Of a stretch of DNA of 64,000 bases, positions 3,174 through 51,680 are shown piece after piece. The first letter of the stretch is position 1. Every line of letters starts with the position of its first letter. Source of the DNA: Sulfurimonas sp. (lineage in GTDB: Bacteria; Campylobacterota; Campylobacteria; Campylobacterales; Sulfurimonadaceae); the NCBI RefSeq assembly GCF_023229105.1, contig NZ_JALNZY010000001.1, forward strand, positions 1,938-65,937. Reading direction: 5' to 3'. Under the pieces are notes generated by a model. It made no database searches and had not been told where the DNA came from. It saw only the letters and a program-made list of their open reading frames with translations. A program made the translations under genes and the position numbers.

Positions 3174-3188
3174 AGAGGGGGATGAATT

Positions 3189-27074: not shown

Positions 27075-27102
27075 TAAATAGTGAGGAAAGAGAAAAATAA
27101 AT

Positions 27103-28287: not shown

Positions 28288-28288
28288 A

Positions 28289-29314: not shown

Positions 29315-29330
29315 ACAAACAGTTATTCTT

Positions 29331-29347
29331 ATCACAAAAATATCACA
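29331..29347 (+). promoter_or_regulatory. ATCACA-N5-ATCACA direct repeat, candidate regulator site
   Basis: ATCACAAAAATATCACA; a near-identical copy (16/17) lies at 44265-44281. Confidence 0.5.
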
Positions 29348-29386
29348 ATATTACAATTTATCTATATTTTTGTTACAAAAAGTGAC

Positions 29387-29400
29387 TTGATATAAGTCAA
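29387..29400. promoter_or_regulatory. Crp/Fnr-family box (TTGA-N6-TCAA)
   Basis: TTGATATAAGTCAA: 9/10 match to the FNR consensus TTGAT-N4-ATCAA; upstream of the OmcE-like gene. Confidence 0.55.
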
Positions 29401-29505
29401 AGTGATTTTTTTCTCTCTTTTAATCATGTTTAATTTAGATTTAGTTATACTTGTACTAGAAAATAGTATTACAAAAAATTATATACTATTAGGGAAGGAG
29501 ACAAA

Positions 29506-30249: not shown

Positions 30250-30253
30250 TATT

Positions 30254-30280
30254 CAGTAGAGAGGTTCTTCCTCCCTGCTG
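30254..30280 (+). terminator. imperfect hairpin terminator after the OmcE-like gene
   Basis: CAGTAGAGAGG-ttctt-CCTCCCTGCTG followed by a T-rich tract. Confidence 0.55.
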
Positions 30281-30306
30281 TCTTCATTTTCCCATTATAC
30301 TTTCTT

Positions 30307-30315
30307 TGTTATAAT
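30307..30315 (+). promoter_or_regulatory. extended -10 promoter of the NHL/PPIase/barrel operon
   Basis: TGTTATAAT 33 bp upstream of the ATG at 30348. Confidence 0.6.
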
Positions 30316-30347
30316 GCAATATTATTATATCAAAGTCGGAGTCTTAT

Positions 30348-31451: not shown

Positions 31452-31460
31452 GGTGGGGTT

Positions 31461-32396: not shown

Positions 32397-32397
32397 C

Positions 32398-34179: not shown

Positions 34180-34192
34180 AGGGGAAAAAGAG

Positions 34193-35203: not shown

Positions 35204-37260
35204 AATCTTTAATAATTACTTTATTGGTTTTTTTGTTTTTTTCAACCATTGAGTCGGCAGCCTCGATTGTAAATACAAAGCATAACCTCTCGGTAACAAG
35301 TGCTGTAGGAAACATAAAAGCTACGAGTGAAACTGAGGTTTGCGTCTTTTGTCATATACCGCATTTCTCACAGACTATTGGAAAGCCGCTTTGGAACAGA
35401 AGTATGCCCACAACAGACTATGTTATGTATGATAGTGATTATCTAAGACGGATGGGTTACCCTTCAATTGCCTCAGACCTTGGCTCGGCAAATGATACTC
35501 CGGGGGCACTCTCTCGTCAATGTCTTAGTTGTCATGATGGAACGATTGCCGTCGGTGCAGTCTCAAAACTTAGACGTGATTATGATGGCTCCTCAACAAT
35601 AGATATGAGCGGTGATGCCCCCGATGGAACCATACCCGATACAGCAGTAGGATTTATAGGCGCGGATCTCTCAAATCATCATCCCGTAGGAGTTGTCTAT
35701 GACCCGACAATAAGTAAAACCTTTGGCAATGGCGGAATCCGCTCAATGGAGCTAAAAGCAATACCAGACGCTCCTATAAAACTTTATGAGTATGCAGGAT
35801 ACAGCGGAAAATATGTAGAGTGTTCCTCCTGCCATAATCCGCATAAAGAGAATAGTAAGTTTTTACACTATGACAGCGGGGCAAACCATGGGCAAAATTT
35901 TGTAGGCACATGTACATCTTGTCATGAAAAAACGGATTGGACAGGGAGTGTGCACCAAAATCCTCCAGGTAATCCAACATATACCGATGCAGAACTTATT
36001 GCAAGATATGGAACTGGTGCTGTAAAAGAGCTTGGGTGTGCAAATTGTCATGTGCCTCACAACGGGGAGGGTGTAGGATACTTAAATAGACAGGTTAACG
36101 AGCAGACATGTTTTCAAGGAGCTGCCTCTACTGAGGGTGGTGCTGCTTGTCATGGTGTCGGCGGGGCAAAAGATATAAAGTCTATTTTAAGCAGATTATA
36201 TACTCATCCTGTCTTGGCGGAGGATAATATTGTGGGAACTCAGCATACAAATCTTGATACGCTCTATGGAACAGGCAATCTTGACCCGCTTGCTATAAAA
36301 GGGATGGACTGGGAAACAAATAAACATGCTGTTTGTATGGATTGTCACAATCCGCACCGTGCACGTGCCGGCACACATATAGTTGACGGTTCATGGTATG
36401 GCGTGCCCGGAGGATCTACAAATCTTGTCTCAAATGTACTTAAGGGAGTCTCCGGTATTGAGCCAACATGGCCGCCAGAATGGACACAGCCGACTACATT
36501 TACAACCATGGAGAGTTCAGAGAAGGAGTACCAAATCTGTTTTAAATGTCACTCATATTGGGGAATAGGTCTTGTAGCTAATAAATATGCTCCTTCAACT
36601 TATACTTCAGCAGGCGGTACTTTGCTTACGGATGTGGCATGGGAGATGAATATAAACAATAAATCTGGACACCCTGTTGTTATAAATTCTCTTGGAAGAA
36701 GTGGTGCTTATGCTCCAAAGGAGCTTGATACAATTCAGCTGCTTACGCCGTGGAAAGAGAATCCAGGGCTTAACACTATGTACTGTTCTGATTGTCACGG
36801 AGCCGATAATGAGCTTGGAGGCGACCCAAAAGGTCCTCATGGCTCAAACTTAAAGTATATTCTTAAAGGTGTAAATCAACACTGGCCGATGAAGCCAGAT
36901 GGTATTACTCTTTACACTATGGATGATTTGAAAAACAATACTGCCCAAGAGCTATTTTGCGCAAACTGCCATGACCCTAAGGAGCCACATACTACATGGT
37001 GGAATAAGATGGCAAACAAAGGTTACCAATGCGTTCAGTGCCATGTAGCAATACCGCATGGTTCTTCTGTTTCTAGACTGGTTGGATATCAGGGTTGGCC
37101 GGCGCCATATAATTATCAAGGGAATAAGTTGACTATGATTGGATATCGAAAAAATGCTTACACGCTTGTTGACCCGCGGGATGCATATGCTACGCATGCA
37201 GGTGGTGGCAGCTGTCATACCACAAATGCCGGTGGTTATGACTTGAACTTGATGCCGTAG
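35200..37260 (+). CDS. secreted multiheme cytochrome c: OmcE-like tetraheme module plus C-terminal extension (10 CXXCH + CX12CH)
   Basis: Signal peptide; SIVNTKHNLS...EVCVFCHIPH...PLWNR...CLSCHDG...DLSNHHPV...VECSSCHNPH...FL...CTSCH, then 7 further sites. Confidence 0.85.
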   Translation: MKSLIITLLVFLFFSTIESAASIVNTKHNLSVTSAVGNIKATSETEVCVFCHIPHFSQTIGKPLWNRSMPTTDYVMYDSDYLRRMGYPSIASDLGSANDTPGALSRQCLSCHDGTIAVGAVSKLRRDYDGSSTIDMSGDAPDGTIPDTAVGFIGADLSNHHPVGVVYDPTISKTFGNGGIRSMELKAIPDAPIKLYEYAGYSGKYVECSSCHNPHKENSKFLHYDSGANHGQNFVGTCTSCHEKTDWTGSVHQNPPGNPTYTDAELIARYGTGAVKELGCANCHVPHNGEGVGYLNRQVNEQTCFQGAASTEGGAACHGVGGAKDIKSILSRLYTHPVLAEDNIVGTQHTNLDTLYGTGNLDPLAIKGMDWETNKHAVCMDCHNPHRARAGTHIVDGSWYGVPGGSTNLVSNVLKGVSGIEPTWPPEWTQPTTFTTMESSEKEYQICFKCHSYWGIGLVANKYAPSTYTSAGGTLLTDVAWEMNINNKSGHPVVINSLGRSGAYAPKELDTIQLLTPWKENPGLNTMYCSDCHGADNELGGDPKGPHGSNLKYILKGVNQHWPMKPDGITLYTMDDLKNNTAQELFCANCHDPKEPHTTWWNKMANKGYQCVQCHVAIPHGSSVSRLVGYQGWPAPYNYQGNKLTMIGYRKNAYTLVDPRDAYATHAGGGSCHTTNAGGYDLNLMP

Positions 37261-37267
37261 GTGTAAG

Positions 37268-37807
37268 ATGAGATTTTTTTTATTAATATTACTATTTTTA
37301 GTGCAGCTTTGTTTTGCTAGCTCAAATGTAAATGATGATAAACGCATAAAAGATTCGTTGTTGAAATATAACTATGGAATCATCAAGATGACAAATAGCG
37401 GCAATACAAAACTTTTAAAAGATATGCTCTCTCAAGAGGTATATTTTAAGTTGATGGTTTGGGCAGACTCTTGGAAGTTCAGCAATCTTGCCATGGTTGC
37501 GCAGATAAATGACTTAAGGTTCTCTCCGATTGCTTACAATGAGAATAATGCCACCATAAGAACTATGGAGAACTGGACATTTGGGTATGCTGACTTGGTA
37601 AAGAGAGATTATGCATTAAAACCTATGACAATCTTTTATAAGATGAAATATACGCTAAAAAAACATCATGGGGAGTGGATAATAGTTGCTGTTGAAAATC
37701 TTCAAGAGGAGGTTTTTACGGAGCCAAATACGCATGAGACATCTTTGCTAGAAAAAAAAGAGAAGCCAAAAGAGGAGGCTGTGCAAGGAAAAATAGAGAC
37801 ACATTAA
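37268..37807 (+). CDS. exported hypothetical protein, NTF2/SnoaL-like fold suspected
   Basis: Signal peptide; ATIRTMENWTFGY...YKMKYTLKKHHGEWIIVAV pattern. Confidence 0.55.
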   Translation: MRFFLLILLFLVQLCFASSNVNDDKRIKDSLLKYNYGIIKMTNSGNTKLLKDMLSQEVYFKLMVWADSWKFSNLAMVAQINDLRFSPIAYNENNATIRTMENWTFGYADLVKRDYALKPMTIFYKMKYTLKKHHGEWIIVAVENLQEEVFTEPNTHETSLLEKKEKPKEEAVQGKIETH

Positions 37808-37902: not shown

Positions 37903-40900
37903 ATGACATTTATTAAAAAAGTGTGGTCATTTTTAATCTCTATGAAATTAATGGCCGTTCTAATTCTGTTATTTGGAGCCGCAAGCGGCGTAGGAACGTT
38001 TATAGAAAATGATTACGGTGTAAATACTTCTTGGGCTGTTATATATGCAAGCAGATGGTTTGAGGCAATTCAGATACTGCTGGGAATAAGTATTTTGGGA
38101 AATATTTTTCGATATAAAATGATTCAGAAAAAAAAGATTCCTGTTCTTATATTCCACGTAGGATTTATAGTTATTTTAATAGGTTCTGGAATAACACGTT
38201 ACTGGGGTTATGAGGGCATAATGAATATACGTGAAGGTGCAACTGAACACCGCATGCTCTCATCTGATGCATTTTTGCAGATAGAGGCAAAAAAGGGCCC
38301 TAAAGAGTTTATAAAACATAAGGTAGTTTATGTCTCTGAGCTTGGGGGAAGAGACTTTAGCGAGAGTTTATATATTGACGATAAAGAGCTTAAGGTAACC
38401 TATAAAGGTTTTATAGCAAAAGCGGTAAAAACGGTTGTTGAAGATCCAAACGGAAAGCCTATAGCAGGACTTGTCATAATGACGCCTCAGGGACCTGAGA
38501 AGTATTTTATAAGCAGCGGAGAATCTTTTGATGTCGGTCCGCTTGCCGTATTTTTTGACAAAGAAGTCTCTGTAAACAAGCCTGTTATTCGCCTTATGAG
38601 CGAGGGAGATAAAATATCTTTTGTGGCTAATGTTCCTATCGGATGGACAAAAATGGCTGATAGAACAGAGGGCGTTTATGAAGCAGGCGTGAAGTACGCA
38701 TTTGATGCGGGAGAGCTCTATAATGTCAGAGGCGTTCAGGTAGTTGCCAAAGAAGTTTATGAGAGAGGTGCAGTCAAGGTTGTTGATGCAGATGAATATC
38801 AAAAAACTGCAAAACAGAATCTTAACATGGATAAAAACCCGCTATCTGCACTCGTAGTAGATGTTACATACAACGGAGAAACACGTGAGGTCGCTATGAT
38901 GGGTAAAGGAAAGCGTTATCAGGGCTTTACAGAGCTGCTAAATATGGATGATATAGAGCTTACACTAGAGTGGGGTGCAAAGATTTTAGAGCTACCGTTT
39001 GCGCTTAAGCTAAATAAATTTGTGATGCTAAAGTACCCAGGCTCGATGAGTCCATCCTCTTATGAGAGCTATATTACTCTGTTGGATAATAAAAACAGTA
39101 TAAAAGAGGATTATAAGATTTATATGAACAATGTACTTGACTATGGTGGATATCTCTTTTTTCAATCATCTTACGACAAAGATGAAAAAGGAACTGTACT
39201 ATCTGTAAATCATGACCCAGGAAAGTGGCCTACCTATATAGGCTATATAATGCTTGGAATAGGGATGTTTCTAAACCTTTTAAATCCAAATAGCTACTTC
39301 GGAAAACTTGCCCGCATGAAATATGAGTACAAGGCTGGAGTTGTTGCAGCAGTTGTGGCTTTTACAACACTTTTTGGCACGCAGCCTCTTGTCGCATCAA
39401 CTGCTGATGCCGGGCAAATTAAACATGTTGATGCAAACCATGCAAATCACTATGGGACTCTGCTTGTTCAGAGTCGTGACGGCAGGATTAAGCCTCTTGA
39501 TACGATGAGTATGGAGTATCTAAATAAAATTACTGCAAAAAGTAGTATGTTTGGACTCAGTCACAATCAGATAATTTTAGGCATGGCATCAAACCCTGAA
39601 GCTTGGAAAGAGGTGGAGATGATTAAAATCTTCCACCCGAAACTGAAAAAAGAGCTAGGAATAGAAGAGTCAAAAAACAGTTTTGCCTACAGCATAGTTT
39701 TTGATAAATTCGGTAACTATATTTTAGGTCCATTGGCGGAAGAGGCTCTTAGAAAACGCCCTGCAGAGAGAGGCACTTACGAAAAAGAGATTATTAAAGT
39801 AGATGAGAGAGTAAATGTCGCTTATATGGTATATTCAGGACGTTTTATGACCGTCTTTCCTTTAAAAGGAGATCAGACTCATAAGTGGTACTATCCTCAA
39901 GAGGCATTAGAAACTTTTCCTAGTGAAGCCGCAAATGAGGTAATGGCTCTTTTAAGAAGCAACTCTCTGGGACTCTCTAAAGGGTTGCAGAGTGGTAACT
40001 GGAGTGATGCAAACAAGGCAATTGACGACATTAAAGCATATCAGGTTAAGATAAACCCAGAGCTAGTAGCAGAAGATATGCTTATAAAAGCAGAGTTGTT
40101 ATATAACAAGCTACAAATCTTTGAGAGGCTTTACCCTATCTATCTGTTGTCCGGTCTTCTTTTGCTTGTGTTGATTTTTATCCGTTTAGCAAAACCTGCT
40201 CTAGACTTAAAAAGAGTTGTGCGCGTGATACTTGTTATTTTTGCAGTTGCATTTGTCGTTCATACGTTTAGCCTTGGACTTCGATGGTACATAGCAGGGC
40301 ATGCACCGTGGAGTAACGGATATGAGGCGATGCTTTATATCTCATGGAGTATAATTTTAGCCGGTCTCTTGTTCGCAAGGTCATCAGAGCTTGCAGTTGC
40401 AACTACAGGTCTTTTTTCGGGAATAACACTTTTTGTAGCACACTTAAGCTGGCTTGATCCTCAAATCACGACCATGGTACCTGTACTTAAATCCTACTGG
40501 CTGACTATACATGTATCTATAATTACGGCGAGTTACGGCTTCCTTGGGCTTAGTACACTGCTTGGCTTTATATCGTTGATATTTTATATTATGCTTGCAA
40601 ATAAGAGTAAACGTGAGCAGATTAGCGTTAACATTATGGAATCTACTCGTATAAGCCAGATGTCAATGATTGTGGGACTTTCTCTTCTTACGCTTGGAAA
40701 CTTTATCGGAGGTGTTTGGGCAAACGAGTCCTGGGGAAGATATTGGGGATGGGACCCTAAAGAGACTTGGACTATAGTTACAATCGCTGTTTATGTTTTT
40801 GCAACACACATGCGTTTTATCCCCGCACTCAAGTCAAACTTTTTATATAATGTAGTCTCCGTTATAGCGTATGCATCAGTCATTATGACTTACTTTGGAG

Positions 40901-41061
40901 TGAACTATTATCTCTCGGGTATGCACTCTTATGCCGCAGGAGATCCTGTTCCGGTACCAGAGTGGATATACTATGTTATCTCTGTAATAGTTTTAGTTAT
41001 TATCATGGCATCGTTAAATCGTGAAAAATTGGTAAAAGTAAAACCGATAATCACAAAGTAG
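37903..41061 (+). CDS. ccsA: fused system II cytochrome c synthase (CcsBA; NrfI/CcsA1/CcsA2 type)
   Basis: ResB-like N-half (FHVGF..ILIG, YPGS..PSSY); CcsA C-half with WANESWGRYWGWDPKETW (WWD domain) and GMHSYA. Confidence 0.95.
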   Translation: MTFIKKVWSFLISMKLMAVLILLFGAASGVGTFIENDYGVNTSWAVIYASRWFEAIQILLGISILGNIFRYKMIQKKKIPVLIFHVGFIVILIGSGITRYWGYEGIMNIREGATEHRMLSSDAFLQIEAKKGPKEFIKHKVVYVSELGGRDFSESLYIDDKELKVTYKGFIAKAVKTVVEDPNGKPIAGLVIMTPQGPEKYFISSGESFDVGPLAVFFDKEVSVNKPVIRLMSEGDKISFVANVPIGWTKMADRTEGVYEAGVKYAFDAGELYNVRGVQVVAKEVYERGAVKVVDADEYQKTAKQNLNMDKNPLSALVVDVTYNGETREVAMMGKGKRYQGFTELLNMDDIELTLEWGAKILELPFALKLNKFVMLKYPGSMSPSSYESYITLLDNKNSIKEDYKIYMNNVLDYGGYLFFQSSYDKDEKGTVLSVNHDPGKWPTYIGYIMLGIGMFLNLLNPNSYFGKLARMKYEYKAGVVAAVVAFTTLFGTQPLVASTADAGQIKHVDANHANHYGTLLVQSRDGRIKPLDTMSMEYLNKITAKSSMFGLSHNQIILGMASNPEAWKEVEMIKIFHPKLKKELGIEESKNSFAYSIVFDKFGNYILGPLAEEALRKRPAERGTYEKEIIKVDERVNVAYMVYSGRFMTVFPLKGDQTHKWYYPQEALETFPSEAANEVMALLRSNSLGLSKGLQSGNWSDANKAIDDIKAYQVKINPELVAEDMLIKAELLYNKLQIFERLYPIYLLSGLLLLVLIFIRLAKPALDLKRVVRVILVIFAVAFVVHTFSLGLRWYIAGHAPWSNGYEAMLYISWSIILAGLLFARSSELAVATTGLFSGITLFVAHLSWLDPQITTMVPVLKSYWLTIHVSIITASYGFLGLSTLLGFISLIFYIMLANKSKREQISVNIMESTRISQMSMIVGLSLLTLGNFIGGVWANESWGRYWGWDPKETWTIVTIAVYVFATHMRFIPALKSNFLYNVVSVIAYASVIMTYFGVNYYLSGMHSYAAGDPVPVPEWIYYVISVIVLVIIMASLNREKLVKVKPIITK

Positions 41062-41737: not shown

Positions 41738-42595
41738 TTATAAAGAGGTAAATTTAGCTTCTTCTATAAGTACAGAGAAGTTGTACCCGTAACCGAGGTC
41801 GATGTCTGTTTTGACTATTCCGTTTGCAGTAACTGTGTCTCCTACTTGTACGGTTGAGTTTACCGCCGTTGCGATTATATCGTTTGTGCCTGCACTACCA
41901 GAGCCATCTTGAAGATGAATCCAATCCTTACCCATAATATTTTTAGAAATTTTGACTATCTTAGCATTTATTTTTACGCTTTTGTCTTTAAGGGCAGCTT
42001 TTTTTGTATATAGCTCTTCTATAGTGTATCCGCCTTTGTTTTTTGCTACAGAGATGGCAGCTGAATCAGGCTGCGTTACCGTTGCTGTTGTTGCAGGCTC
42101 TTTTGAGTGGTCGCAATTTGCATGAGCATCCTCTAGGGTCAATGTTTTAGCAGATGCATCTGTAGCACTTCCATCTGCGGGTACAATAGCACTTACAAAA
42201 ACTAACTGGTCAAAATGTTTATTTAACGACTTACTTGTAAAATCATTCATAACCATCTGCTCCAAGAACGAGATAGAGCTTCCAACAACAACATTTGTCT
42301 GTGGACCTGCTATCCAGTATATGTTTCCGCCTTCATCAACTTTAGCATAAGTGTAACCGCCGCCATTTATAGTCTCTAGTGCCTTTGCTATATGAGGCGT
42401 GTTTAACTGTACATTACCCTTAGCAGGTGCGTTTGCTTGTGCTTGCTCTGTGGCAGGCACGCCATACATACTTTTAGGAATACTCTCCTCGACACTTTTG
42501 CTTATTTGGGTTGAACTCTCTTGTTCTTTAGGCTTATCGCTACAGCCGTACATTAAAAGTGCGGCAACACTAATTGCTATTGATATTTTGTTCAT
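41738..42595 (-). CDS. NrfJ-like lipoprotein with C-terminal OB-fold-like domain
   Basis: Lipobox MYGC; ALETINGGGYTYAKV...YWIAGP (NrfJ-like); C-terminal VKINAKIVK...MGKDWIHLQDGSG...DLGYGY. Confidence 0.6.
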   Translation of the reverse strand: MNKISIAISVAALLMYGCSDKPKEQESSTQISKSVEESIPKSMYGVPATEQAQANAPAKGNVQLNTPHIAKALETINGGGYTYAKVDEGGNIYWIAGPQTNVVVGSSISFLEQMVMNDFTSKSLNKHFDQLVFVSAIVPADGSATDASAKTLTLEDAHANCDHSKEPATTATVTQPDSAAISVAKNKGGYTIEELYTKKAALKDKSVKINAKIVKISKNIMGKDWIHLQDGSGSAGTNDIIATAVNSTVQVGDTVTANGIVKTDIDLGYGYNFSVLIEEAKFTSL

Positions 42596-43343
42596 TTTGT
42601 TCCTTTAAAATTTTTTTATGTTCTTCATATCTTTTTTTTGCTGCTTCAAAAGTTTCGTTGGGGTTTTTACTTGCTTTGAAGTATTCTTCCATAAAGTTGT
42701 TGTAGTCAATCTCTTCTTGAGTTATTTTTTTGGCTTTTTTCTGGGCATCTTTTTGTTCTTGAGTTAGAACTAGAGGTAGAGCTTCTATAAGAATAGCTAC
42801 GGCATTCATCTGCTTCTCAGAGAGTTTTGAAGCCTGCCCATTCATCATGACTCCTTGACCGTAAGTATTTCTTGTACCTGCTTTATATTCCTTTAAATCT
42901 TTTACAACTTCTGTTGCACTCATTCCAGCAATCAGTTTGCTTACGCCAAGCGATTTTTTTTGACCCTTGTCGCCATGGCATACCGCGCATTTTTGAAAAA
43001 TCTCTTCAGCAGTCATATCTTTTGTCCGTTTAGGCTCTGTAGCTATTTTGACTATCGGAGCAAGAGATGCTATATAGCCAGAGAGTTCTTTTATATCTGC
43101 ATCAGAGAGTCGTTTTGCCTGTCCTTGCATCATGCTTCCGAGTCCGTATGTGTTCCTAGTGCCTGCTCTGTACTCTTGAAGTATAGCGGTAACCTCTTTT
43201 TGGTCCATGCCAGCAATGCTTTTTGTTAGATTTTGAGAGTGTTTTTCACCATTTTTTCCATGACAAGTCGCACATCTATCAAAGAGTTGTGTTGCGGAAG
43301 CTACAGTGGCGATTGAGATTAGAATAAGTAAAGCTTTTTTCAT
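42570..43343 (-). CDS. diheme cytochrome c (tandem c553-like domains)
   Basis: Signal peptide; CATCHG and CAVCHG, each followed by YKAGTR.....MM.GQA..LS. Confidence 0.9.
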   Translation of the reverse strand: MKKALLILISIATVASATQLFDRCATCHGKNGEKHSQNLTKSIAGMDQKEVTAILQEYRAGTRNTYGLGSMMQGQAKRLSDADIKELSGYIASLAPIVKIATEPKRTKDMTAEEIFQKCAVCHGDKGQKKSLGVSKLIAGMSATEVVKDLKEYKAGTRNTYGQGVMMNGQASKLSEKQMNAVAILIEALPLVLTQEQKDAQKKAKKITQEEIDYNNFMEEYFKASKNPNETFEAAKKRYEEHKKILKEQNEQNINSN

Positions 43344-43346
43344 CTT

Positions 43347-44090
43347 CTACTCCTCTGGAAGAACCGACTCTTGAATTTCAACTTGCCACTGCTCTTGATC
43401 TAAAATCAGTTTTGCTTCCGAGTTTCCGTTTAGGTAAGCCTCTTTTAAGAGATCCTCTGCCTCTTTTTTATCTTTGGCAACACCGTCGCCTTCAAGATAC
43501 ATTCTGCCAAGCGTATATTGAGCCTCTCCGCAGCTTTGCATTGCGGACTTGCTTAGATACTCTTTTGCTTTTTCTATATCCTTTTTAACTCCTTGCCCAC
43601 TTTTATACATATAGCCCACTTTGTTTTGTGCCAGTGGATAACCTGCATCGGCAACCTGCTTATATAGAGGAAAGGCTTTTGCATAATCCTGCTCTGCACC
43701 GTCACCTTTATAATATAAGTCCGCTAAATGAAGCGCCGATTTTTGATCACCTTTTTTAGCTGCTTTGGAAAACAGAGCGATAGCCTCTTTGTCATTTTGT
43801 TTTACGCCATCACCCTTGTGGTACATAACCGCGAGGTTATAAATAGCTTTTGCATGACCTTGATCTGCTGCTTTTTGGTACAACTTAGCGGCCATGGCAT
43901 GGTCTTTATCGGTAACAATTCCTTGATAATACATACCACCCAATGCAAACTGGCTATTTGCTTCCCCTTTTTCGGCTTTTATTTTTACGGACATAAAAGC
44001 TTTTTTATTCATATCAATCTTCTCTGCAGCAACGGCTGAGTTTAAAATCAGCAAAGAGTGCAGAAGAAGTATAAGCACTGTTTTTTTCAT
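43347..44090 (-). CDS. Sel1-like (SLR/TPR) repeat periplasmic protein
   Basis: Signal peptide; repeated A.QG.A.AQ..LG.MY..G.GV..D units; TGATATAAT promoter on the minus strand at 44128-44136. Confidence 0.92.
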   Translation of the reverse strand: MKKTVLILLLHSLLILNSAVAAEKIDMNKKAFMSVKIKAEKGEANSQFALGGMYYQGIVTDKDHAMAAKLYQKAADQGHAKAIYNLAVMYHKGDGVKQNDKEAIALFSKAAKKGDQKSALHLADLYYKGDGAEQDYAKAFPLYKQVADAGYPLAQNKVGYMYKSGQGVKKDIEKAKEYLSKSAMQSCGEAQYTLGRMYLEGDGVAKDKKEAEDLLKEAYLNGNSEAKLILDQEQWQVEIQESVLPEE

Positions 44091-44264
44091 AGTTATTCCT
44101 CGTAAATTACTTTGTCAGTAAGGGGTTATTATATCAGCAGTAAGTAAATTAATTTCTTAAAAATCGATATGCAGCTTTTTGTTTTGTATAAATAATAATA
44201 ATTATAAATAGAAGGATAATTATATGTTTATATTATATTTACTATTTAATTATTGTATGAAATA

Positions 44265-44281
44265 ATCACAAAAAAATCACA
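44265..44281 (+). promoter_or_regulatory. ATCACA-N5-ATCACA direct repeat, candidate regulator site
   Basis: ATCACAAAAAAATCACA upstream of the NapC/NirT gene; matches 29331-29347 at 16/17. Confidence 0.5.
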
Positions 44282-44378
44282 TTCAAACAAAGTTTATTCT
44301 TTTGCTCTATATTTAGTTTAAATTAATAAAGAAAGGTTAATAATTACAAGAAGTATACATAAAAGGGAAGAGGGAAAA

Positions 44379-45008
44379 GTGCAAAAAGATGATATGAGAA
44401 TAGAAAGAAAGAGAAAATACTCTTTTGGAATAAGGGTTATAATTGCTCTTATAGTAGGTGGAGTAGTTGTAGGGATGGGAACATCTTTTGTTACGGTCAT
44501 TGCAGTAAAGCATACGTCAGACGTAAACTTTTGTGGTTCTTGCCACTCTATGAAGCCTATGGCTGATGCTTATAGAAATAGTGTTCATGGTGGGTACGGT
44601 GATAGCGGTATTATGGCTACTTGTGCGGATTGTCACTTGCCACATGAATCTACTCTTGGTTATATGGTACAGAAGGTTAAGACCGGTATGTGGGATGTGT
44701 GGGTTGAGACTACGCACGATACTTCAAAAATTGATTGGCATGAGCGTCGCAGAGAGCGTCGTAACTGGGTTTATGATAGTGGATGTCTGCATTGTCATGA
44801 AAACTTATTACGCGGTACCCGACCAAATAAAAAGGCATTTACTGCTCATAAAGCCTATTTCTCTGAAAAACTTTTAGTTGAAGGTGAAGATGGGAAAGAG
44901 CGTGCAAAGTGTGTTGATTGTCACAGAAATGTAGGTCACTATCAACTAGAAAAACATCTTCCGCCACCGCCAGTGGAAGTATATAATGAAAATAATAAAA
45001 AGCATTAA
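44379..45008 (+). CDS. NapC/NirT family membrane-bound tetraheme quinol dehydrogenase (CymA/NrfH-like)
   Basis: GTG start; N-terminal TM helix; TSDVNFCGSCHSM, CADCHLPH, CLHCH, CVDCH..VGH. Confidence 0.93.
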   Translation: MQKDDMRIERKRKYSFGIRVIIALIVGGVVVGMGTSFVTVIAVKHTSDVNFCGSCHSMKPMADAYRNSVHGGYGDSGIMATCADCHLPHESTLGYMVQKVKTGMWDVWVETTHDTSKIDWHERRRERRNWVYDSGCLHCHENLLRGTRPNKKAFTAHKAYFSEKLLVEGEDGKERAKCVDCHRNVGHYQLEKHLPPPPVEVYNENNKKH

Positions 45009-45014
45009 GGAGAT

Positions 45015-45539
45015 ATGATGGAACAAAAATATATTAAACCAACTATTATTGTGGGTGTGCTTGTTATCATTATCATTCTGCTTGCTATGTCAAATGCTGG
45101 TGAAAAGTTTGTGCGTTTAGGAAAAATTGGGGAGCAGATTGCAACCAATCTTGCTAATGCAAGTCATGGAGATCCTCGTTCTCTTAAAGAGATGGACAAA
45201 GAACGAATAAAAGCTACTACGGGTAGCTCTCATACCGTAGATGTCAGTGAGTTGCCAAAGGCATTTCTCCCACTCAAAGAGCATGGGCATCCACCTTTTA
45301 CCCTGGGTGCGTGTAACGTATGTCATGCTTCAAGAACAGATAAGCCCGCTGCAATTACGACTCGTACGGTAGCTGAGCTTTGTTACACATGTCATTATCC
45401 AAAAGAGGAAATTGATAAGCGTATGGCTGCACTAGATTGTAATAAGTGTCACAGCCCTCATCACGCAGATAGGGAAAAACTTGTGCGAAATAAAGTTATT
45501 GAAAAAGAGTGTCCAGTAGGTGAATTTCAATCAAACTAA
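45015..45539 (+). CDS. membrane-anchored triheme cytochrome c
   Basis: N-terminal hydrophobic helix; CNVCH, CYTCH, CNKCH; HPPF.LGAC motif shared with the dodecahemes. Confidence 0.85.
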   Translation: MMEQKYIKPTIIVGVLVIIIILLAMSNAGEKFVRLGKIGEQIATNLANASHGDPRSLKEMDKERIKATTGSSHTVDVSELPKAFLPLKEHGHPPFTLGACNVCHASRTDKPAAITTRTVAELCYTCHYPKEEIDKRMAALDCNKCHSPHHADREKLVRNKVIEKECPVGEFQSN

Positions 45540-45583
45540 TAGTTTGATTGAAATTTGGTAGTTAAAAAACACGAGGTATAGTA

Positions 45584-47104
45584 ATGAAACAAAATATGAC
45601 AAAAATAATAATAACAGTGTTGGTATTAGCACTGAGTGTATTCTTATTTCAGTCATATGGTGTTGCTGATAAGCTGAGTCGCTTTGTTACTATAATGGGT
45701 AATATAACAAATAGTCTTAAAAATGCCAAACATGCCTATGAAGAGGTTAATTTTACTATAAGCGATGATGAATTAAAAGATGTCAATATCACTAAACTTG
45801 CCCAAGAGTTTAAAAGTTCTATTGATAAGAAAAAAGAGGCTCTTGTTCTTGCTATAAAAGCACCGCCAGAGATTCAAGTTGATGAGATTAGAGAAGAAGA
45901 GATCCCAACACACACTAAAACACAAACAATAAAAGCAAAAATTGTTAAGATGGAAGATTTACCTGCAAAATTCAAACCGCTTAAGCAGTATCTTCATGAA
46001 CCATTTAAGATGGGAGCATGCCAAATCTGCCATACATCAAAGAATAATAAACCCGGAGAGCTGGTTAAGAAAAATATTTCTGAGATATGTTATGAATGTC
46101 ACAAGACTCGCTACACAAAAAAGTTTGATCATAAACCTGCAAAAGATGGACGATGCATGGACTGTCATGATCCGCATCAGTCAAATACAAAAAAGTTACT
46201 AAAGGCTGAGTCTGTAAATACCCTATGTCTGAAGTGCCATGACCGCAAAAGCACATTCAGTGCAAAAGCAGAAAAGCTGTTTGTCAACATGGACTTGGCG
46301 GTTAAGCATAAGCCTATTGTAGAAAAGAGTTGTTTAGAGTGTCACGATGCACATACGGCAGATCACAAATCACTCCTTTCTCTTGATGCAAAGATGGATT
46401 TATGTTTGGATTGCCATGATACAATTAAAGAAAAAATAACTCATGCAAAGTTTAAACATGGTGGTGTAAATACAAGTGAGAAGCGCTGTTTAGAGTGTCA
46501 TGATCCGCATGCTACAAAACATGTTAAACTGCTTAAAAAAGACCCGGTTGCTACATGTTTAAAGTGCCATGACAAAGAAGTAAAGTCTGATGAAGACGGC
46601 GGAATGCTTATGAATATGAAAAAGCATCTAGACGAAAATCCAAATTGGCACAAACCAATAAAAGATGTTAAAAAAGAGGGAGGATGTTCAGCTTGTCACG
46701 ATCCACACGGTTCAGATAACTTTAGCATTCTAAGAAAATCTTTTACGCAAAACTTTTATGCTGATTTGGCAAATAAAGAGTTTTTTTGTTTTAAGTGTCA
46801 CACAGAGAAAAAAATTACAAAACAGTTTATCACTACTTCACAGGAGCACAATATTACTGCGTTTAGAGACGGCGAGGTAAATCTGCACTACCTACATGTA
46901 AACGATAGAAAAGGGCGTGCATGTAGAGCTTGTCATGATGAACATGCTTCTAAATACAAGCATCTTATAAGGGACTATACCGATTTTAACGGTATAAAAT
47001 TTCCGCTTAGGTTTAAAGAGAGTGCTGAGGGTGGTTCTTGTGCTCCTGCTTGTCATAAAGAGTTTGCTTATGACCGTGTTAATCCAAAAGGGATAGGAAA
47101 GTGA
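45584..47104 (+). CDS. membrane-anchored dodecaheme cytochrome c (11 CXXCH + CX3CH), paralog of 27103-28287
   Basis: N-terminal TM helix and ~110-aa heme-free stalk, then paired-CXXCH units ending GGSCAPACH. Confidence 0.92.
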   Translation: MKQNMTKIIITVLVLALSVFLFQSYGVADKLSRFVTIMGNITNSLKNAKHAYEEVNFTISDDELKDVNITKLAQEFKSSIDKKKEALVLAIKAPPEIQVDEIREEEIPTHTKTQTIKAKIVKMEDLPAKFKPLKQYLHEPFKMGACQICHTSKNNKPGELVKKNISEICYECHKTRYTKKFDHKPAKDGRCMDCHDPHQSNTKKLLKAESVNTLCLKCHDRKSTFSAKAEKLFVNMDLAVKHKPIVEKSCLECHDAHTADHKSLLSLDAKMDLCLDCHDTIKEKITHAKFKHGGVNTSEKRCLECHDPHATKHVKLLKKDPVATCLKCHDKEVKSDEDGGMLMNMKKHLDENPNWHKPIKDVKKEGGCSACHDPHGSDNFSILRKSFTQNFYADLANKEFFCFKCHTEKKITKQFITTSQEHNITAFRDGEVNLHYLHVNDRKGRACRACHDEHASKYKHLIRDYTDFNGIKFPLRFKESAEGGSCAPACHKEFAYDRVNPKGIGK

Positions 47105-48036
47105 TATCTGCTTATGATTTTGCAAAAGCTTTTATAGCGTTGGCTATATTTTTCACAGGCGCTTTTGCAGAAGATGGGTTTATGCAGGTACTCACTCCAA
47201 AACAGAACCATCTTCAAACTGAGTTGACGCTAAATGTTGTTTTAGAGATAGACAAAAAAAGAGTAGATATCATTAAAATAATGACTCCCTTAGAGGAGAT
47301 AGAGATAGATATGAAAAGCCAAAAAAATACAGAGTGCAAAAACATTCAGCTGAGACTCGGTGAAAACAGAGTTGATATTAGAGCCTATAAAGAGAATGTT
47401 TTAGTAGCTCAAGAGAATAGAGATGTTTATGTCTCATCAGAGCTTTATCATCAGTTTAGGTATCCGCCACAAGAGTATAGCCATACTTATTTTCACAATA
47501 AAGATAATGAGAAACTTTGTGCAAAATGTCACGACATGAGTGTGAATGAAGTAAGTGGTGTGGCATTTGAGGATATTACAAAATCAAACTGTTATGGATG
47601 TCACAAGAGTATAAACAAAGAGAAGTATGCTCATGCCCCTTCGGCAAACTGGCTATGTACTAGCTGTCATATACAGAGCAAAAAAGGTGTCTCCAAATAT
47701 CTCACAAAAGAGCCTATTAATGCTTCATGTTTTGAGTGTCACGAGGAGAACAAAGAGTTATGGGGTAATGCAAAATATCGCCATGAACCATTGGATTCAG
47801 GACACTGCGAGAAGTGTCATAATCCTCACTCCGGTCCCTACATCATGTTTATACGCAAAGATGTAAACCTGATATGTCTGGGATGCCATAAAGATAAGCA
47901 TATAAAAGCGCAGCAGAGCAAAAATTCTGCATGTAGTGGTACTAGCGAGGGGGGCTTATGTATAGAGTGCCATACGCCGCATGCGTCAAATCAGCCGTTT
48001 TTTCTAAAAAAGAGATTTGAGAGAGTTGTAAAATGA
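47101..48036 (+). CDS. heptaheme cytochrome c with N-terminal beta-sandwich-like domain
   Basis: GTG start, signal peptide, 7 CXXCH; paralog of 28289 and 48033. Confidence 0.88.
   Translation: MISAYDFAKAFIALAIFFTGAFAEDGFMQVLTPKQNHLQTELTLNVVLEIDKKRVDIIKIMTPLEEIEIDMKSQKNTECKNIQLRLGENRVDIRAYKENVLVAQENRDVYVSSELYHQFRYPPQEYSHTYFHNKDNEKLCAKCHDMSVNEVSGVAFEDITKSNCYGCHKSINKEKYAHAPSANWLCTSCHIQSKKGVSKYLTKEPINASCFECHEENKELWGNAKYRHEPLDSGHCEKCHNPHSGPYIMFIRKDVNLICLGCHKDKHIKAQQSKNSACSGTSEGGLCIECHTPHASNQPFFLKKRFERVVK
47530..47625 (+). repeat. 96-bp direct repeat, copy 1
   Basis: 94/96 identical to 48465-48560. Confidence 0.9.
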
Positions 48037-49043
48037 GAAGGTATATCTGCATAAAATATATACTCTCTTTACTGTTCTGCTCTTTCTTGCTTTTTGCGCA
48101 GGATGAAACAGGATTCAGATTGCTTAATCCGCAAATCTCTAGTATAAATGAAGAGAGGATTGCTTCATTTGTGATTGAGGCTGATAGCCAAAAAATAGAT
48201 TTTATTTCAATAACGACAGATGCAAACAAGACGTTTAGCATTGAGGTTAATGAGGAGCGCTCACACTACTGTAAAAGTATAAATCTTCATATTGGGCTAA
48301 ACAGTATAAAAGTGGCAGGCTACAAAAATGCTTTAGTTATAAAAGAGCAGAGCAGAGAGCTCTTTTTTGTATCAAAAGTTGACAAAGATTTTAGATACCC
48401 GCCAGAGGGGTATAGCAAAAAACATTTTCATAACCAAGAGAATGAGAAGCTATGTATAAAATGCCACGACATGAGTGTGAATGAAGTAAGTGGCGTGGCA
48501 TTTGAAGATATTACAAAATCAAACTGTTATGGATGTCACAAGAGTATAAACAAAGAGAAGCACTCACATGCACCATCGGTAAATTGGCTCTGCACATCTT
48601 GTCATAACGGTGAGGTAGGAGTGTTTAATAAGGCAGATAAAGATAGGACAAAATATAGTGTTCCAGATCCGATAGAGGGAGTTTGCTTCTCCTGCCATAA
48701 AAAATATAAAGAGGAGTGGAGCAAAAAAAGGTTCCATCATGAGCCTGCGGAGTCCGGACGCTGCAATAGGTGTCATAATGCACACTCATCGCTTAGCGAG
48801 TTTTACCTAAAAAAGCCTTCTTGGGAGCTCTGTACAGATTGTCATAAAGATAAAATTGAGGGGATGCATATTGTTAAAACATTTGGGAGAAAAGCGCATC
48901 CGACCCATAATGTAAAAGATCCCTCCAGAGAAGGCAAGGATTTAAGCTGTACAAGTTGTCATAACCCGCATGCCTCAAACGCGCCATCTCTTCTACAGAG
49001 TGAAACCAGCATGGGGCTCTGCTCCCGTTGCCATAAAAAATAA
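48033..49043 (+). CDS. octaheme cytochrome c with N-terminal beta-sandwich-like domain
   Basis: Signal peptide, 8 CXXCH; same layout as 28289-29314 (HAP..NWLC, GHP/AHPT...DP.R.G..L.C). Confidence 0.9.
   Translation: MRRYICIKYILSLLFCSFLLFAQDETGFRLLNPQISSINEERIASFVIEADSQKIDFISITTDANKTFSIEVNEERSHYCKSINLHIGLNSIKVAGYKNALVIKEQSRELFFVSKVDKDFRYPPEGYSKKHFHNQENEKLCIKCHDMSVNEVSGVAFEDITKSNCYGCHKSINKEKHSHAPSVNWLCTSCHNGEVGVFNKADKDRTKYSVPDPIEGVCFSCHKKYKEEWSKKRFHHEPAESGRCNRCHNAHSSLSEFYLKKPSWELCTDCHKDKIEGMHIVKTFGRKAHPTHNVKDPSREGKDLSCTSCHNPHASNAPSLLQSETSMGLCSRCHKK
48465..48560 (+). repeat. 96-bp direct repeat, copy 2
   Basis: 94/96 identical to 47530-47625; both differences are synonymous. Confidence 0.9.
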
Positions 49044-49130
49044 AAAGTGTTGTCATTTGTTGAACTTTTTAAAGTGCTATAGTGCTGTTTTTAGATATAA
49101 TCGCGCAATTTTATACTAAGAGATACACTT

Positions 49131-51680
49131 ATGGATATTAGAGAAGAATTTTTAAGATTTTTTGAATCAAAAAATCATGACAGAGTGGCTAGCTCGCCTC
49201 TTGTTCCCGATGATGCGACGCTACTTTTTAACAATGCGGGGATGGTTCCTTTTAAGTCCATCTTTACAGGCGAAGTTCCTGCTCCTCACAATCCTAGAGC
49301 AGTCTCATGCCAAACATGTATTCGTGCCGGCGGAAAACACAATGACTTGGAAAATGTAGGTTATACGGCAAGACATCACACTTTTTTCGAGATGCTAGGT
49401 AACTTTAGTTTTGGGAATTATTTCAAAGAAGAAGCAATTGAGTATGCCTGGGAGTTTATAACAAAGGTTCTTAAGCTTCCAAAAGAGAAACTCTGGGTTA
49501 CAGTGCATGAGAGCGATGATGAAGCGGAGAAGCTTTGGCAAAAGCATGTAGCGCATGAGAGAATTATGCGTCTTGGCGATAAAGATAACTTTTGGCAGAT
49601 GGGTGACACGGGACCATGTGGACCATGTAGTGAAATTTTTTACGATCAAGGCGAGGAGAATTTCAATGGTCCTGAGGATTGTATGGGAGGCGAGGGCGAT
49701 AGATTTTTAGAGATTTGGAATCTTGTCTTTATGCAGTATGAGAGAAGCAGTGATGGCACCCTAACTCCTCTTCCAAAACCTTCTATTGATACAGGAATGG
49801 GGTTTGAGCGTGTTGTGGCAATTAGCGAGGGCGTTACAAGTAACTACTCCTCCTCACTTTTTATGCCTATAATCAAAAAGATTGAAGTGCTTATAAAAAA
49901 AGAGTATATTTATGCCGATGGCGCATCTTACCGCGTTATAGCAGATCACGTAAGAACTGCTCTTTTTCTTCTCTCTCAGGGTGTAAATTTCTCCAACGAG
50001 GGTAGAGGATACGTACTTAGAAGAATTCTCCGACGCGGGGTAAGACATGGTTATCTGCTTGGGTTTAGTGAGCCTTTTATGTATAAACTTGTAGATACTG
50101 TTGTCGCAATCATGGGCAAAGAGTATGATTATCTAGCTCAAAAAGCAGAAGTTGTAAAAGAGCAGATTGAGCTTGAAGAAGCAAGATTTTTCAAAACTAT
50201 TGCATCTGGAATTGAGCTTTTTAATGAAGAGCTTAAGGAGACAAAAGAGGTATTTAGCGGGGAGGTTGCATTTAAACTCTACGATACTTTTGGCTTCCCT
50301 CTTGATTTGACCGAAGATATGTTAAGAGAGAAAAATCTCAAACTTGATGCAGTTACGTTTGAAACACTGATGAGTCAGCAGCGTACACGTGCAAAAGCTG
50401 CTTGGAAGGGTAGCGGAGATGAAGCTGTTCATGGCGATTTTAAAGAGCTTTTAGAAAAATTCGGTGAAAATAGCTTTGTTGGGTACGAAAGTACAAAGCA
50501 CAAAAGTAGAGTTTTGGCACTCTTGGATAAGCAGTATCGTCATGCCGATATGCTCCCCTCAGGCGCAAAAGGTTGGGTGCTTTTAGAGGCAACTCCTTTT
50601 TATGCAGAATCAGGCGGACAGTGTGGAGATATAGGCACACTTACAGGCTTGGCAAAGGTAGAAGATACTAAGAAATTTTTCGGTTTAAACCTCTCTGAGA
50701 TAACGGTTGAAAAAGAGTTAAAAGTATCAGATGAAGTTGAAGCTGTTGTGGATATTTCAAGAAACGAGATAACTAAGCATCACTCTGCAACTCACTTGCT
50801 CCATGCAGTGCTTTTTGATGTGCTAGGAGAGCATATCTCTCAAGCAGGTTCGCTTGTTGAAGCAGATAGACTTCGCTTTGACTTCTCTCATCCAAAAGCT
50901 ATCTCGCAGGAAGAACTTCTTGAGATAGAAAACAGAGTAAATGAGCAGATTATGCGCGGTCTTGGTGGTAAAACTGAGGTCATGAGTATTGAGGACGCTA
51001 AAAAATCAGGTGCAAAAGCACAGTTTGGCGAGAAATACGGACAAGAGGTAAGAGTCGTTAGCTTCGGTGATGCAAGTATTGAGTTTTGTGGCGGAGTGCA
51101 TGTGGATAACACTGCATCAATCGGCTCATTTATTATCACAAAAGAGAGCGGCGTAAGTGCAGGTGTACGCAGAATTGAGGCAGTTTGCGGATATGCGGCG
51201 TATGAGCACTTCTGTGAGAATAGAGCACTGATTAAAGAGATTCAAGCAGAGGTTAAAAACCTAGATGCTATGGCAGGAATCTCAAGACTAAAATCAACTA
51301 TCTCTGAGTTAAAAGTAGAGCTTCTTGAGGCGCAAAACAGCATACACGTAGAGATAAAAGCGGATAATATTAACGGCGTTGCAGTTGTGGTTGATGAGCT
51401 GACAAGCGGCGATATAAAAGAGAAAATTGACGAACTTAAAAACCAAAACGAAAAATTATGCGCAATGCTCTTTCAAGTTAAAGGCGATAAAGTTTTGATA
51501 GCTGCAGGTGTTAAAGGTGCTGATGCAAAAGCAGGAGAGTGGATTAAAAACATTGCTCCGATTTTAGGCGGAGGTGGAGGCGGCAGAGCTGATTTTGCGC
51601 AAGCCGGTGGAAAAGATATCTCTAAGATTGCCGAAGCTAAAGTAAAAGCAAAAGCTTACATAAGTGAGGTTTTGGGGTAG
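49131..51680 (+). CDS. alaS: alanine--tRNA ligase
   Basis: [52 protein letters not shown]. Confidence 0.99.

Follow-up and report, generated by a model that had tools for sequence, protein, structure and literature searches.

Here, we describe a five-gene cytochrome operon, genes A to E, in a 64,000-nucleotide (nt) stretch of DNA from Sulfurimonas sp. (contig NZ_JALNZY010000001.1, positions 1,938 to 65,937; "the window" means this whole stretch). With modest confidence, we propose that the operon encodes the inner-membrane and periplasmic limb of a menaquinol-fed extracellular electron transfer (EET) pathway. A is a tetraheme protein of the NapC/NirT type, C is a 12-heme MtrA-like cytochrome whose N-terminus appears to hold it beside A, B is a triheme relative of C, and D and E are further multiheme cytochromes. 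This reading is carried by gene content, heme counts, homology, synteny, and a natural fusion of A to C. Upstream of the operon lie an OmcE-type/porin cluster and a cytochrome c heme lyase, CcsBA, and it is their presence that would turn the idea of a "wire across the periplasm" into a concrete EET pathway. The proposal bears on how electrons cross the 20–40 nm periplasm from the inner membrane to outer conduits and cytochrome nanowires.

Organization and conservation of the operon

Genes A to E are tightly packed on the plus strand and span positions 44379–49043 (Table 1). A and B are separated by 6 nt and B and C by 44 nt; the C/D and D/E pairs overlap by 4 nt each. A 288-nt divergent intergenic region precedes A, and alaS lies 87 nt past E. 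The original prediction, made from the DNA letters and their translations, described a module of three genes, in which a tetraheme NapC/NirT gene is followed by a triheme and a dodecaheme cytochrome gene. This gene order and the heme motifs are as described, and the peptides quoted in support are found verbatim in the translations; the unit is larger, however, with D and E joined to it by their overlaps to make an operon of five genes. A scan of positions 43900–49300 returned promoter-like matches at the count expected from shuffled sequence, and terminator matches in the same interval were weak and chiefly on the minus strand.

The window has a G+C content of ~37%. The closest homologues of C, with 84% and 81% identity, are both from Sulfurimonas metagenome-assembled genomes (MAGs), and groundwater and landfill metagenomes hold near-identical DNA. 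A search of sequencing runs returned 15, labelled as groundwater, landfill, farm or sediment metagenomes, and nine of these hold at least 20% of the sampled words.

In a census that scanned one genome per species, the 12- to 13-heme core of C was found in at least 563 loci from Campylobacterota, Aquificota, Nitrospirota, Desulfobacterota, Bacteroidota, Planctomycetota, and other lineages. The tethered form is restricted in its taxonomic spread. A full-length C occurs in 20 Campylobacterota loci (L001, L006–L018, L020–L025); in every one of them, A and B directly precede it, and D/E-type genes follow wherever the contig continues; D itself is kept after C in Sulfurimonas-type loci. The order in Aquificota, including the isolate Persephonella marina EX-H1, is A-C-E-E, without B. 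No C-type gene is without an E-type gene behind it; this holds also for the fusion described below and for the soluble paralogue of C. B appears to be dispensable because it is absent from the Aquificota and fusion lineages and, judged from gene order, the minimal conserved set is A, C, and E.

A natural 688-amino-acid (aa) A::C fusion (P0063) also points to a functional pair; it occurs in three independent assemblies and is followed by one E-type gene, with no B. The fusion has lost the hydrophobic segment of C; the QKFDKFITVMGDIKTNL helix stands directly after the NapC domain, and a 96-aa spacer is kept. Taken together, synteny and the fusion are strong comparative evidence that A and C work together, that the N-terminus of C sits at the inner membrane beside A, and that the leash between this N-terminus and the hemes matters.

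A NapC/NirT-type quinol dehydrogenase

A matches PF03264 with 114.7 bits (cut-off 24.1) over profile positions 8–171 of 174. Its anchor comprises 24 uncharged residues, with a 19-residue Kyte-Doolittle score of 2.42, and its CXXCH motifs begin at residues 52, 82, 136, and 178. In an alignment to NrfH (2J7A_C, E=7e-10), M58 of the CGSCHSM motif, K99, and D106 of A fall on M49, K82, and D89 of NrfH, which we take, from the NrfH literature, to be quinol-site residues. A thus retains an NrfH-type site, i.e., CXXCHXM at heme 1 together with a Lys and an Asp seven residues apart. The PF03264 match and this site agree with the earlier assignment of A as a NapC/NirT quinol dehydrogenase, a role that we regard as predicted. 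Also as predicted, no nap, nrf, or nir catalytic gene is adjacent to the operon or present among the window ORFs (open reading frames) scanned, and NrfA, NapAB, and TorA genes are likewise absent from the window.

Scores against the NCBIfam equivalog models are well below their cut-offs for NrfH (75.9 vs 134.2), NapC (44.8 vs 349), the NapC/NirT subfamily (59.3 vs 310.6), and TorC (~66 vs 455–478); by this measure, A is a separate subfamily that is none of NrfH, NapC, or TorC. Homologues with at least 55% identity to A come from the same lineages as those bearing the operon, and the two whose context was read (from Nitrosophilus alvini and Persephonella) sit in an operon of the same kind. A more distant Sulfurimonas NapC/NirT paralogue, 45% identical to A (L087:6001-7932), is followed by a gene for a 458-aa Multi-haem_cyto/cytochrome c554-like octaheme protein (epsilon-Hao-like). 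Here the NapC-type protein belongs to another module, one that has a catalytic partner, and the layout fits the habit of the NapC family of being encoded beside the acceptor. We also considered an Aeromonas relative of A (P0226) as a suspected NetB; its context, a small c3-type cytochrome and a two-component system, was uninformative.

MtrA-like heme domains of C, D, and E

The heme domain of C resembles MtrA in both sequence and predicted structure. The C-family profile matches MtrA (6R2Q_A) with E=1.4e-21. In a Foldseek search with the AlphaFold2 model of C (mean predicted local distance difference test score, pLDDT, of 83), the only significant match was MtrA (6r2q_A; E=2.2e-5, probability 1.0), and the superposition gave a template modeling score (by target) of 0.55 over 269 columns, covering the whole of MtrA. 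C is nevertheless not a member of the decaheme MtrA/DmsE family as defined by TIGR03508, for which it scores 99.5 against a cut-off of 192.2; D and E, at ~64 each, are also below. Eleven of the heme motifs of C are CXXCH, and the twelfth is a CX3CH motif (CAPACH); because this motif is invariant in 85 homologues, the name "dodecaheme" holds. In the same 85 C-family sequences, the 12 motif His residues and 12 further His residues are invariant. With one invariant distal His per heme, C would have no open catalytic site, and these sequences are consistent with bis-His ligation of all 12 hemes; we therefore read C as a wire, not an enzyme. A catalytic role for C was considered and rejected on this ground and because there is no CXXCK motif.

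E combines an MtrA-like heme domain (E-family profile vs MtrA, E=4e-22) with an N-terminal domain for which Foldseek returns FN3, Ig, and SoxY-like sandwiches (AlphaFold2 model, mean pLDDT 89.8). D is a paralogue of E with seven hemes.

The charge of the heme proteins is asymmetric. The heme domain of anchored C has a median net charge of +20.5 (range +6 to +50; 22 homologues), its soluble paralogue, C2, is near neutral, and OmcE-like subunits are acidic, with a median of −9. Speculatively, this pattern is compatible with electrostatic steering.

The shared N-terminal module of B and C

The original prediction proposed that B and C share a homologous N-terminal design, and profile comparisons bear this out. 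A BLASTP alignment of the two proteins (E=1e-22) covers the N-terminus, skips the spacer of C, and resumes through three hemes. We built family profiles for B and C from 20–22 loci and restricted them to non-heme segments; with hhalign, the post-anchor motif alone gives P=6.6e-15 and the pre-heme motif alone (ELPxxFxPLKxxxHxPFxxG) gives P=1.1e-15. The heme domain of B is nearest to C residues 121–215 (36% identity, E=2.5e-21), and is closer to these than to C2 (E=1e-11), which argues from sequence that B and the N-terminal third of C share a recent common ancestor. B had been described as a truncated paralogue of C; it is indeed the closest kin of the C N-terminus plus the first three hemes, but either truncation of C or extension of B would account for the likeness. 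Among known families, B matches Paired_CXXCH_1, falls below the cut-off for cytochrome c7 (PF14522; 21.2 vs 24.8), and has no match in a PDB sequence search.

The post-anchor motif is an amphipathic helix with a hydrophobic moment of 0.49–0.50, a value matched by ~1% of shuffled sequences, and residues 27–47 of C are modelled as a helix at a pLDDT of ~86. This helix probably docks on or beside A. A conserved His within it (NAKH/NASH) was considered as a ligand to a heme of A and rejected, since the A::C fusion lacks it (NLMVSNDEYY). The N-terminal module of C is rare: its N-terminal 125 residues match only eight proteins at E≤1e-3 among 1.84 billion representatives.

The heme-free region of C as a whole runs from about residue 28 to residue 122. 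It had been described as a ~110-aa charged, heme-free spacer. Charged and heme-free it is, but the variable spacer proper comprises 71 aa and is not featureless. Across 33 homologues, it is 61–96 aa long and on average 43% charged, with helical-looking Glu/Lys runs in some Campylobacterales and Pro/Glu/Lys-rich, TonB-like runs in Aquificota. AlphaFold models it with low confidence (pLDDT 45–65). A conserved I(S/T)DEELxDINITKIA segment lies inside it, which argues that it is no pure linker. Since the spacer is heme-free and hence non-conducting, it can only position or leash the heme domain. The earlier idea of a tethered wire that lifts electrons therefore stands for the C heme domain, as an MtrA-like wire with 12 predicted bis-His hemes, but not for the stalk.

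Anchors or signal peptides

The hydrophobic N-termini of B and C could be uncleaved anchors or signal peptides. In C, the segment consists of 21 uncharged residues with a 15-residue core and is modelled as a helix over residues 2–24. The (−3,−1) signal peptidase rule proved too permissive to separate the two cases, flagging 21 of 23 genuine NapC anchors, and we relied instead on hydrophobicity. The family mean of the best 19-residue Kyte-Doolittle score is 2.31 for the NapC anchors (A), 2.83 for B, and 2.13 for C, compared with 1.66–1.94 for paralogues with canonical xFA↓Q cleavage sites (C2, D, E, and E2, the E-type paralogue encoded beside C2). B therefore looks anchor-like, its segment being more hydrophobic than those of genuine NapC anchors, and it is likely that its N-terminus is retained. 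C is a borderline case for which the balance tips, by a smaller measure, toward an uncleaved anchor.

We give some weight, as a minority possibility, to the removal of one or both N-termini by signal peptidase I, which would leave mature proteins that are soluble or held by the helix; such an outcome is compatible with any reading of the pathway. In its favor, and against retention of the C anchor, the 15-residue core of C resembles the 12- to 14-residue cores of the cleaved paralogues, and a plausible SYG↓VA site is present. Many B homologues similarly have small residues at −3/−1, e.g., SNA↓GE. The fusion leaves the matter undecided, because a signal peptide would be lost on fusion just as an anchor would. 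Against cleavage stand the hydrophobicity values given above and the lack of conservation of the SYG↓VA site in the C family, where many homologues have D or K at −1. Even the permissive rule, which flags 21 of 23 NapC anchors, finds no candidate site in six of 23 C homologues, although that rule is weak either way. In Aquificota, C has 22–23 hydrophobic residues followed by WQKR. Moreover, conservation in the N-terminus peaks immediately behind the segment, and lipoboxes or fusion tether other members of the family.

Since other members are lipoproteins with an LTGC lipobox, tethering is a recurrent trait of the family. Overall, 12-heme proteins are tethered in at least three ways: by a transmembrane segment, a lipid anchor, or fusion to NapC. 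Among the C2 homologues (L030–L033, L035, L036, L038; Hydrogenimonas and Campylobacterales MAGs), several have lipoboxes (e.g., LLTGC) and a longer N-terminal linker.

The upstream cluster and neighboring genes

A second group of cytochrome genes, at 26724–37807, likely encodes an outer-membrane limb, as judged by its homologies. Its tetraheme OmcE homologue aligns over residues 5–247 to residues 6–232 of 7TFS_A (E=1.6e-22) and also matches 9YUQ_N (2.7e-18). The presence of this full-length homologue suggests that a Sulfurimonas-type bacterium may make cytochrome filaments. The 10-heme cytochrome is OmcE-like over residues 7–223 (E=5e-22 vs 7TFS_A), and ~460 further residues carry its remaining heme motifs. 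As a candidate subunit, it could form the base, cap, or tip of an OmcE-type filament; the OmcE paper reports no such candidate as evident in the operons examined there. The mechanically called ORF of E2 starts at a TTG at 28199 and overlaps C2, and the true start is likely the ATG at 28289 (MSFKFIYLF..., a canonical signal peptide).

Linkage between the two groups is recurrent. Besides the window, at least 10 loci, from Sulfurimonas, Sulfuricurvum, Nitrosophilus, other Campylobacterales, and Aquificota, have genes A to E linked to CcsBA and the OmcE-type/Uet-like cluster, with varying orders and orientations. CcsBA, a fused system II heme lyase, lies between the two cytochrome clusters in the window, a position that it has in many lineages, and is co-located with them in both Campylobacterota and Aquificota loci. 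The outer cluster is also found in Candidatus Sulfurimonas marisnigri (Ca. S. marisnigri), Sulfurimonas sp. CS5, and others.

The published minimal omcE cluster consists of two multiheme cytochromes, two beta-propeller lipoproteins, OmcE, and a large beta-barrel, and homologues have been noted in Campylobacterota and Aquificota. Similarly, the uet cluster of Ca. Tenderia electrophaga encodes a tetraheme cytochrome (UetA), a peptidyl-prolyl isomerase (PPIase; UetB), a barrel (UetC), NHL proteins (UetH/I), an undecaheme cytochrome (UetJ), CcsAB, and a TPR protein. Both clusters were published as EET machinery.

Table 1. Coordinates of the operon, the parts of C, and the upstream cluster (window numbering)
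Feature	Coordinates	Strand	Description
A	44379–45008	+	209 aa; 4 CXXCH; tetraheme, NapC/NirT family, NrfH/CymA-like; N-terminal transmembrane anchor at about residues 19–43
B	45015–45539	+	174 aa; 3 CXXCH; hydrophobic N-terminus 8–28, amphipathic helix motif 29–52, short linker, pre-heme motif, 3 hemes
C	45584–47104	+	506 aa; 11 CXXCH plus CAPACH; 12-heme MtrA-like cytochrome; predicted N-terminal tether
C residues 7–27	45602–45664	+	hydrophobic segment, signal-anchor or signal peptide
C residues 27–51	45662–45736	+	conserved amphipathic helix DKLSRFVTIMGNITNSLKNAKH, common to B, kept in A::C fusion
C residues 52–122	45737–45949	+	heme-free charged spacer/leash; 71 aa, 38% charged, no Cys
C residues 123–506	45950–47101	+	12-heme wire domain; pLDDT mostly >85; net charge +16
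C residues 486–491	47039–47056	+	CAPACH (CX3CH)
D	47101–48036	+	311 aa; 7 CXXCH; signal peptide AFA↓ED, N-terminal non-heme domain
E	48033–49043	+	336 aa; 8 CXXCH; signal peptide LFA↓QD, Ig/FN3-like beta-sandwich at residues 28–112, MtrA-like heme domain
Monoheme cytochrome c (class I)	26724–27074	+	opens the outer cluster
C2	27103–28287	+	soluble 12-heme paralogue
E2	28289–29314	+	E-type octaheme
OmcE homologue	29506–30249	+	247-aa tetraheme
NHL propeller	30348–31451	+	
SurA-like PPIase	31461–32396	+	
Putative beta-barrel	32398–34179	+	593 aa; C-terminal Phe
Second NHL propeller	34193–35203	+	
10-heme cytochrome	35200–37260	+	686 aa
179-aa protein	37268–37807	+	
CcsBA fusion	37903–41061	+	1052 aa; system II cytochrome c heme lyase

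Several other genes in the window deserve mention. Every C or C2 homologue carries an invariant GGSCxPACH (CX3CH) motif, and CcsBA may be dedicated to, or needed for, that motif. Between CcsBA and the operon lies a divergent trio of genes (41738–44090, minus strand) for a 285-aa lipoprotein without a family match, a 257-aa diheme class-I cytochrome c, and a Sel1-repeat protein. The trio has the same position in several Sulfurimonas-type loci (L006–L009, L011, L020), and it may link the system to a high-potential cytochrome c chain. The Sel1/TPR protein (43347–44090, minus strand) may be compared with the NrfG-like TPR protein of the uet cluster. Further away are bc1-type Rieske and cytochrome b genes (2649–4403, plus strand) and a gene for a 687-aa molybdopterin oxidoreductase (22150–24213, plus strand), which is Fdh-alpha/NasC-like and below equivalog cut-offs. 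This molybdoenzyme is probably cytoplasmic, as its alignment begins at residue 3–10; Ca. S. marisnigri (L004) has a similar one upstream of its cytochrome cluster. Lastly, one Sulfurimonas MAG has a 556-aa ORF (L019:9656-11326) that joins an E2-like N-terminus to C residues 127–506, with the genes between E2 and C (OmcE, barrel, CcsBA, A, and B) missing. Either the two paralogous clusters have recombined with each other in this MAG, or the ORF reflects a collapse in the assembly.

A proposed pathway and its alternatives

In the pathway that we favor, A, anchored in the inner membrane, would oxidize menaquinol and hand the electrons to C, a 12-heme rod whose N-terminus keeps it beside A. It would be held there by its hydrophobic segment together with the conserved amphipathic helix, with the ~70 charged residues of the spacer acting as a leash. 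B would be an accessory specific to Campylobacterota, a triheme adaptor with a short linker that probably bridges A and C near the membrane. D and E would be soluble, Ig-headed, MtrA-like wires that extend the chain or shuttle. By MtrA-length scaling, a 12-heme rod is ~11–12 nm long and an 8-heme rod ~7–8 nm; on this rough measure, C and E together could span a typical periplasm. The recipients would be the proteins encoded 7–18 kb upstream, i.e., C2/E2, the putative beta-barrel, the two NHL propellers, the PPIase, and the OmcE-type subunits. Net flow would most likely run out of the cell, with menaquinol as the donor and, e.g., Fe(III)/Mn(IV) oxides, humics, or partner cells as the extracellular acceptor; we favor this direction because menaquinone has a low potential and sites of the NrfH type are known to act in quinol oxidation. 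The physical contacts, the uncleaved anchors, the order of carriers after A, and the direction of flow are what we infer from the comparative data. In line with such a pathway, Mn(IV) oxide reduction has been reported for Ca. S. marisnigri, a relative that bears the outer cluster.

Several points weigh against this pathway. NapC/NirT enzymes can run in reverse, so inward flow is conceivable as well. No RNA was found among the 15 sequencing runs returned, all of which were guessed to be DNA. Neither Pfam nor the PDB gave a match to the 593-aa "porin", which is called a barrel by analogy and for its C-terminal Phe. For Ca. S. marisnigri, the best match in the search with C was the soluble paralogue, and an anchored C did not turn up; this pattern suggests that the operon is not obligatory for the outer machinery. 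Finally, in D. ferrophilus, which we liken to the present case through NHL-containing clusters alone and not through cytochrome homology, Fe(III) oxide reduction persisted when the cytochrome gene sets of such clusters were deleted.

The same genes could serve electron uptake. Extracellular donors, e.g., Fe(II) minerals, reduced humics, partner cells, or cathode-like surfaces, would then feed the island, and A to E would pass the electrons on either to menaquinone, in which case A would act as a quinone reductase, or to oxidases or reductases in the periplasm. The carriers of the operon are chemolithoautotrophs, a class-I monoheme cytochrome c opens the outer cluster, and a diheme cytochrome c is encoded between the clusters. 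Class-I mono- and diheme cytochromes c are typical links to cbb3 or bc1 chains. By content, the closest described cluster, uet of Ca. Tenderia electrophaga, was proposed for electron uptake, and work on ImoA places NapC/NirT homologues in uptake pathways of Fe(II) oxidizers. We nevertheless consider net uptake unlikely. On established bioenergetic grounds, a NapC-type protein, being non-electrogenic, could reduce low-potential menaquinone only if the donor were itself of low potential, and both the known use of the NrfH-type site in quinol oxidation and the Mn(IV) oxide reduction reported for the relative with the outer cluster speak for the opposite direction. A periplasmic hub or capacitor unrelated to the outer cluster, in which 30 wire hemes buffer electrons or route them to soluble reductases whose genes lie elsewhere (Nap, Nos, polysulfide, tetrathionate, or others), appears decidedly unlikely. 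Such a role would suit an operon without a terminal reductase and the apparent presence of the outer cluster without A to E in Ca. S. marisnigri, and it has a model in Shewanella CymA, which serves many periplasmic reductases. It sits poorly with the linkage of A to E to the OmcE/CcsBA cluster, which holds across Campylobacterota lineages and Aquificota despite rearrangement, with the direct paralogues of C and E (C2 and E2) inside the outer cluster, and with the lack of nap, nrf, or nir genes nearby.

Menaquinol-fed outward transfer through a leashed C also has a stronger form, which we regard as doubtful. C, together with B where present, would be permanently leashed to A and, with E-type octahemes, would form a continuous chain of at least 20 hemes (~20 nm by the same rough scaling) that reaches the base of an OmcE-type nanowire. 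The nanowire would be charged from the quinol pool without diffusible periplasmic carriers, and the spacer would let the basic 12-heme rod swing back and forth from the inner membrane to acidic outer partners.

Novelty and implications

The operon and its surroundings are assembled from familiar types of part, namely a quinol dehydrogenase of the NapC/NirT type, MtrA-like wires, and a cluster of the OmcE/Uet type. We found no description of the operon itself in the literature within reach, which excluded many subscription papers, e.g., the Ca. S. marisnigri genome description. Within that literature, we also did not find a dedicated NapC-type protein with leashed 12- and 3-heme wires that share a docking helix, Ig-headed partner octahemes, natural NapC::wire fusions, or the placement of such a set beside an OmcE-type cluster.

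The operon offers a compact, genetically testable alternative to diffusing triheme carriers. This alternative comprises a quinol dehydrogenase and leashed MtrA-like rods, with fusion variants that mark the partners and an OmcE-type neighbor. If the proposal is right, nanowire-type EET would reach the sulfur- and hydrogen-oxidizing Campylobacterota and Aquificota of groundwater, landfills, and hydrothermal vents, and it would bear on Mn/Fe cycling, on the Mn(IV) reduction reported for Sulfurimonas, and on the association with cable bacteria. The cultured carriers, Persephonella marina EX-H1 and Nitrosophilus alvini, make the operon experimentally accessible.

Comparison with known systems

A is closest in design to NrfH and CymA, with which it shares a single N-terminal transmembrane helix, four CXXCH motifs, the CXXCHXM motif, and the Lys/Asp pocket residues. 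It resembles CymA also in its proposed job, which is to feed multiheme carriers instead of an enzyme. A differs in that neither NrfA nor Nap accompanies it; the genes for its own partners lie in cis, and one lineage has A and its partner fused. TorC carries a NapC/NirT tetraheme domain fused to a C-terminal heme domain, with one extra heme, and serves trimethylamine N-oxide reductase. It is thus a precedent for a quinol dehydrogenase joined to its immediate acceptor cytochrome, as in the A::C fusion, although the fusion adds a 96-aa spacer and 12 hemes where TorC adds one.

C, D, and E are built of paired-CXXCH units, as are MtrA, DmsE, PioA, and MtoA. C differs from these in having 12 hemes including the CX3CH site, a beta-rich C-terminal end, and an N-terminal tether and spacer. 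The operon also lacks a porin gene, the 593-aa candidate being encoded 11 kb upstream, beside C2. B differs from cytochrome c7 and PpcA-type triheme proteins in its hydrophobic N-terminus and in a heme domain that is nearest to C.

The upstream block shares with the OmcE clusters of Geobacter and Desulfuromonas and with the uet cluster an OmcE homologue, two NHL proteins, a PPIase, CcsBA, a large putative barrel, and an 11- to 12-heme "doubled CXXCH" cytochrome; for uet, the likeness is judged by gene content alone. By contrast, the descriptions of these clusters that we consulted mention neither NapC/NirT genes nor wires tethered to a membrane. For Geobacter, the current view is that the nanowires receive their electrons from the diffusing triheme cytochromes PpcA–E. 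There, ImcH, CbcL, and CbcBA together with PpcA–E have the same proposed job as A to E, moving electrons from the quinol pool to periplasmic multiheme carriers and on to outer-membrane conduits or nanowires. The architectures are unrelated: in Geobacter the carriers are small and free, whereas here they are long and apparently leashed.

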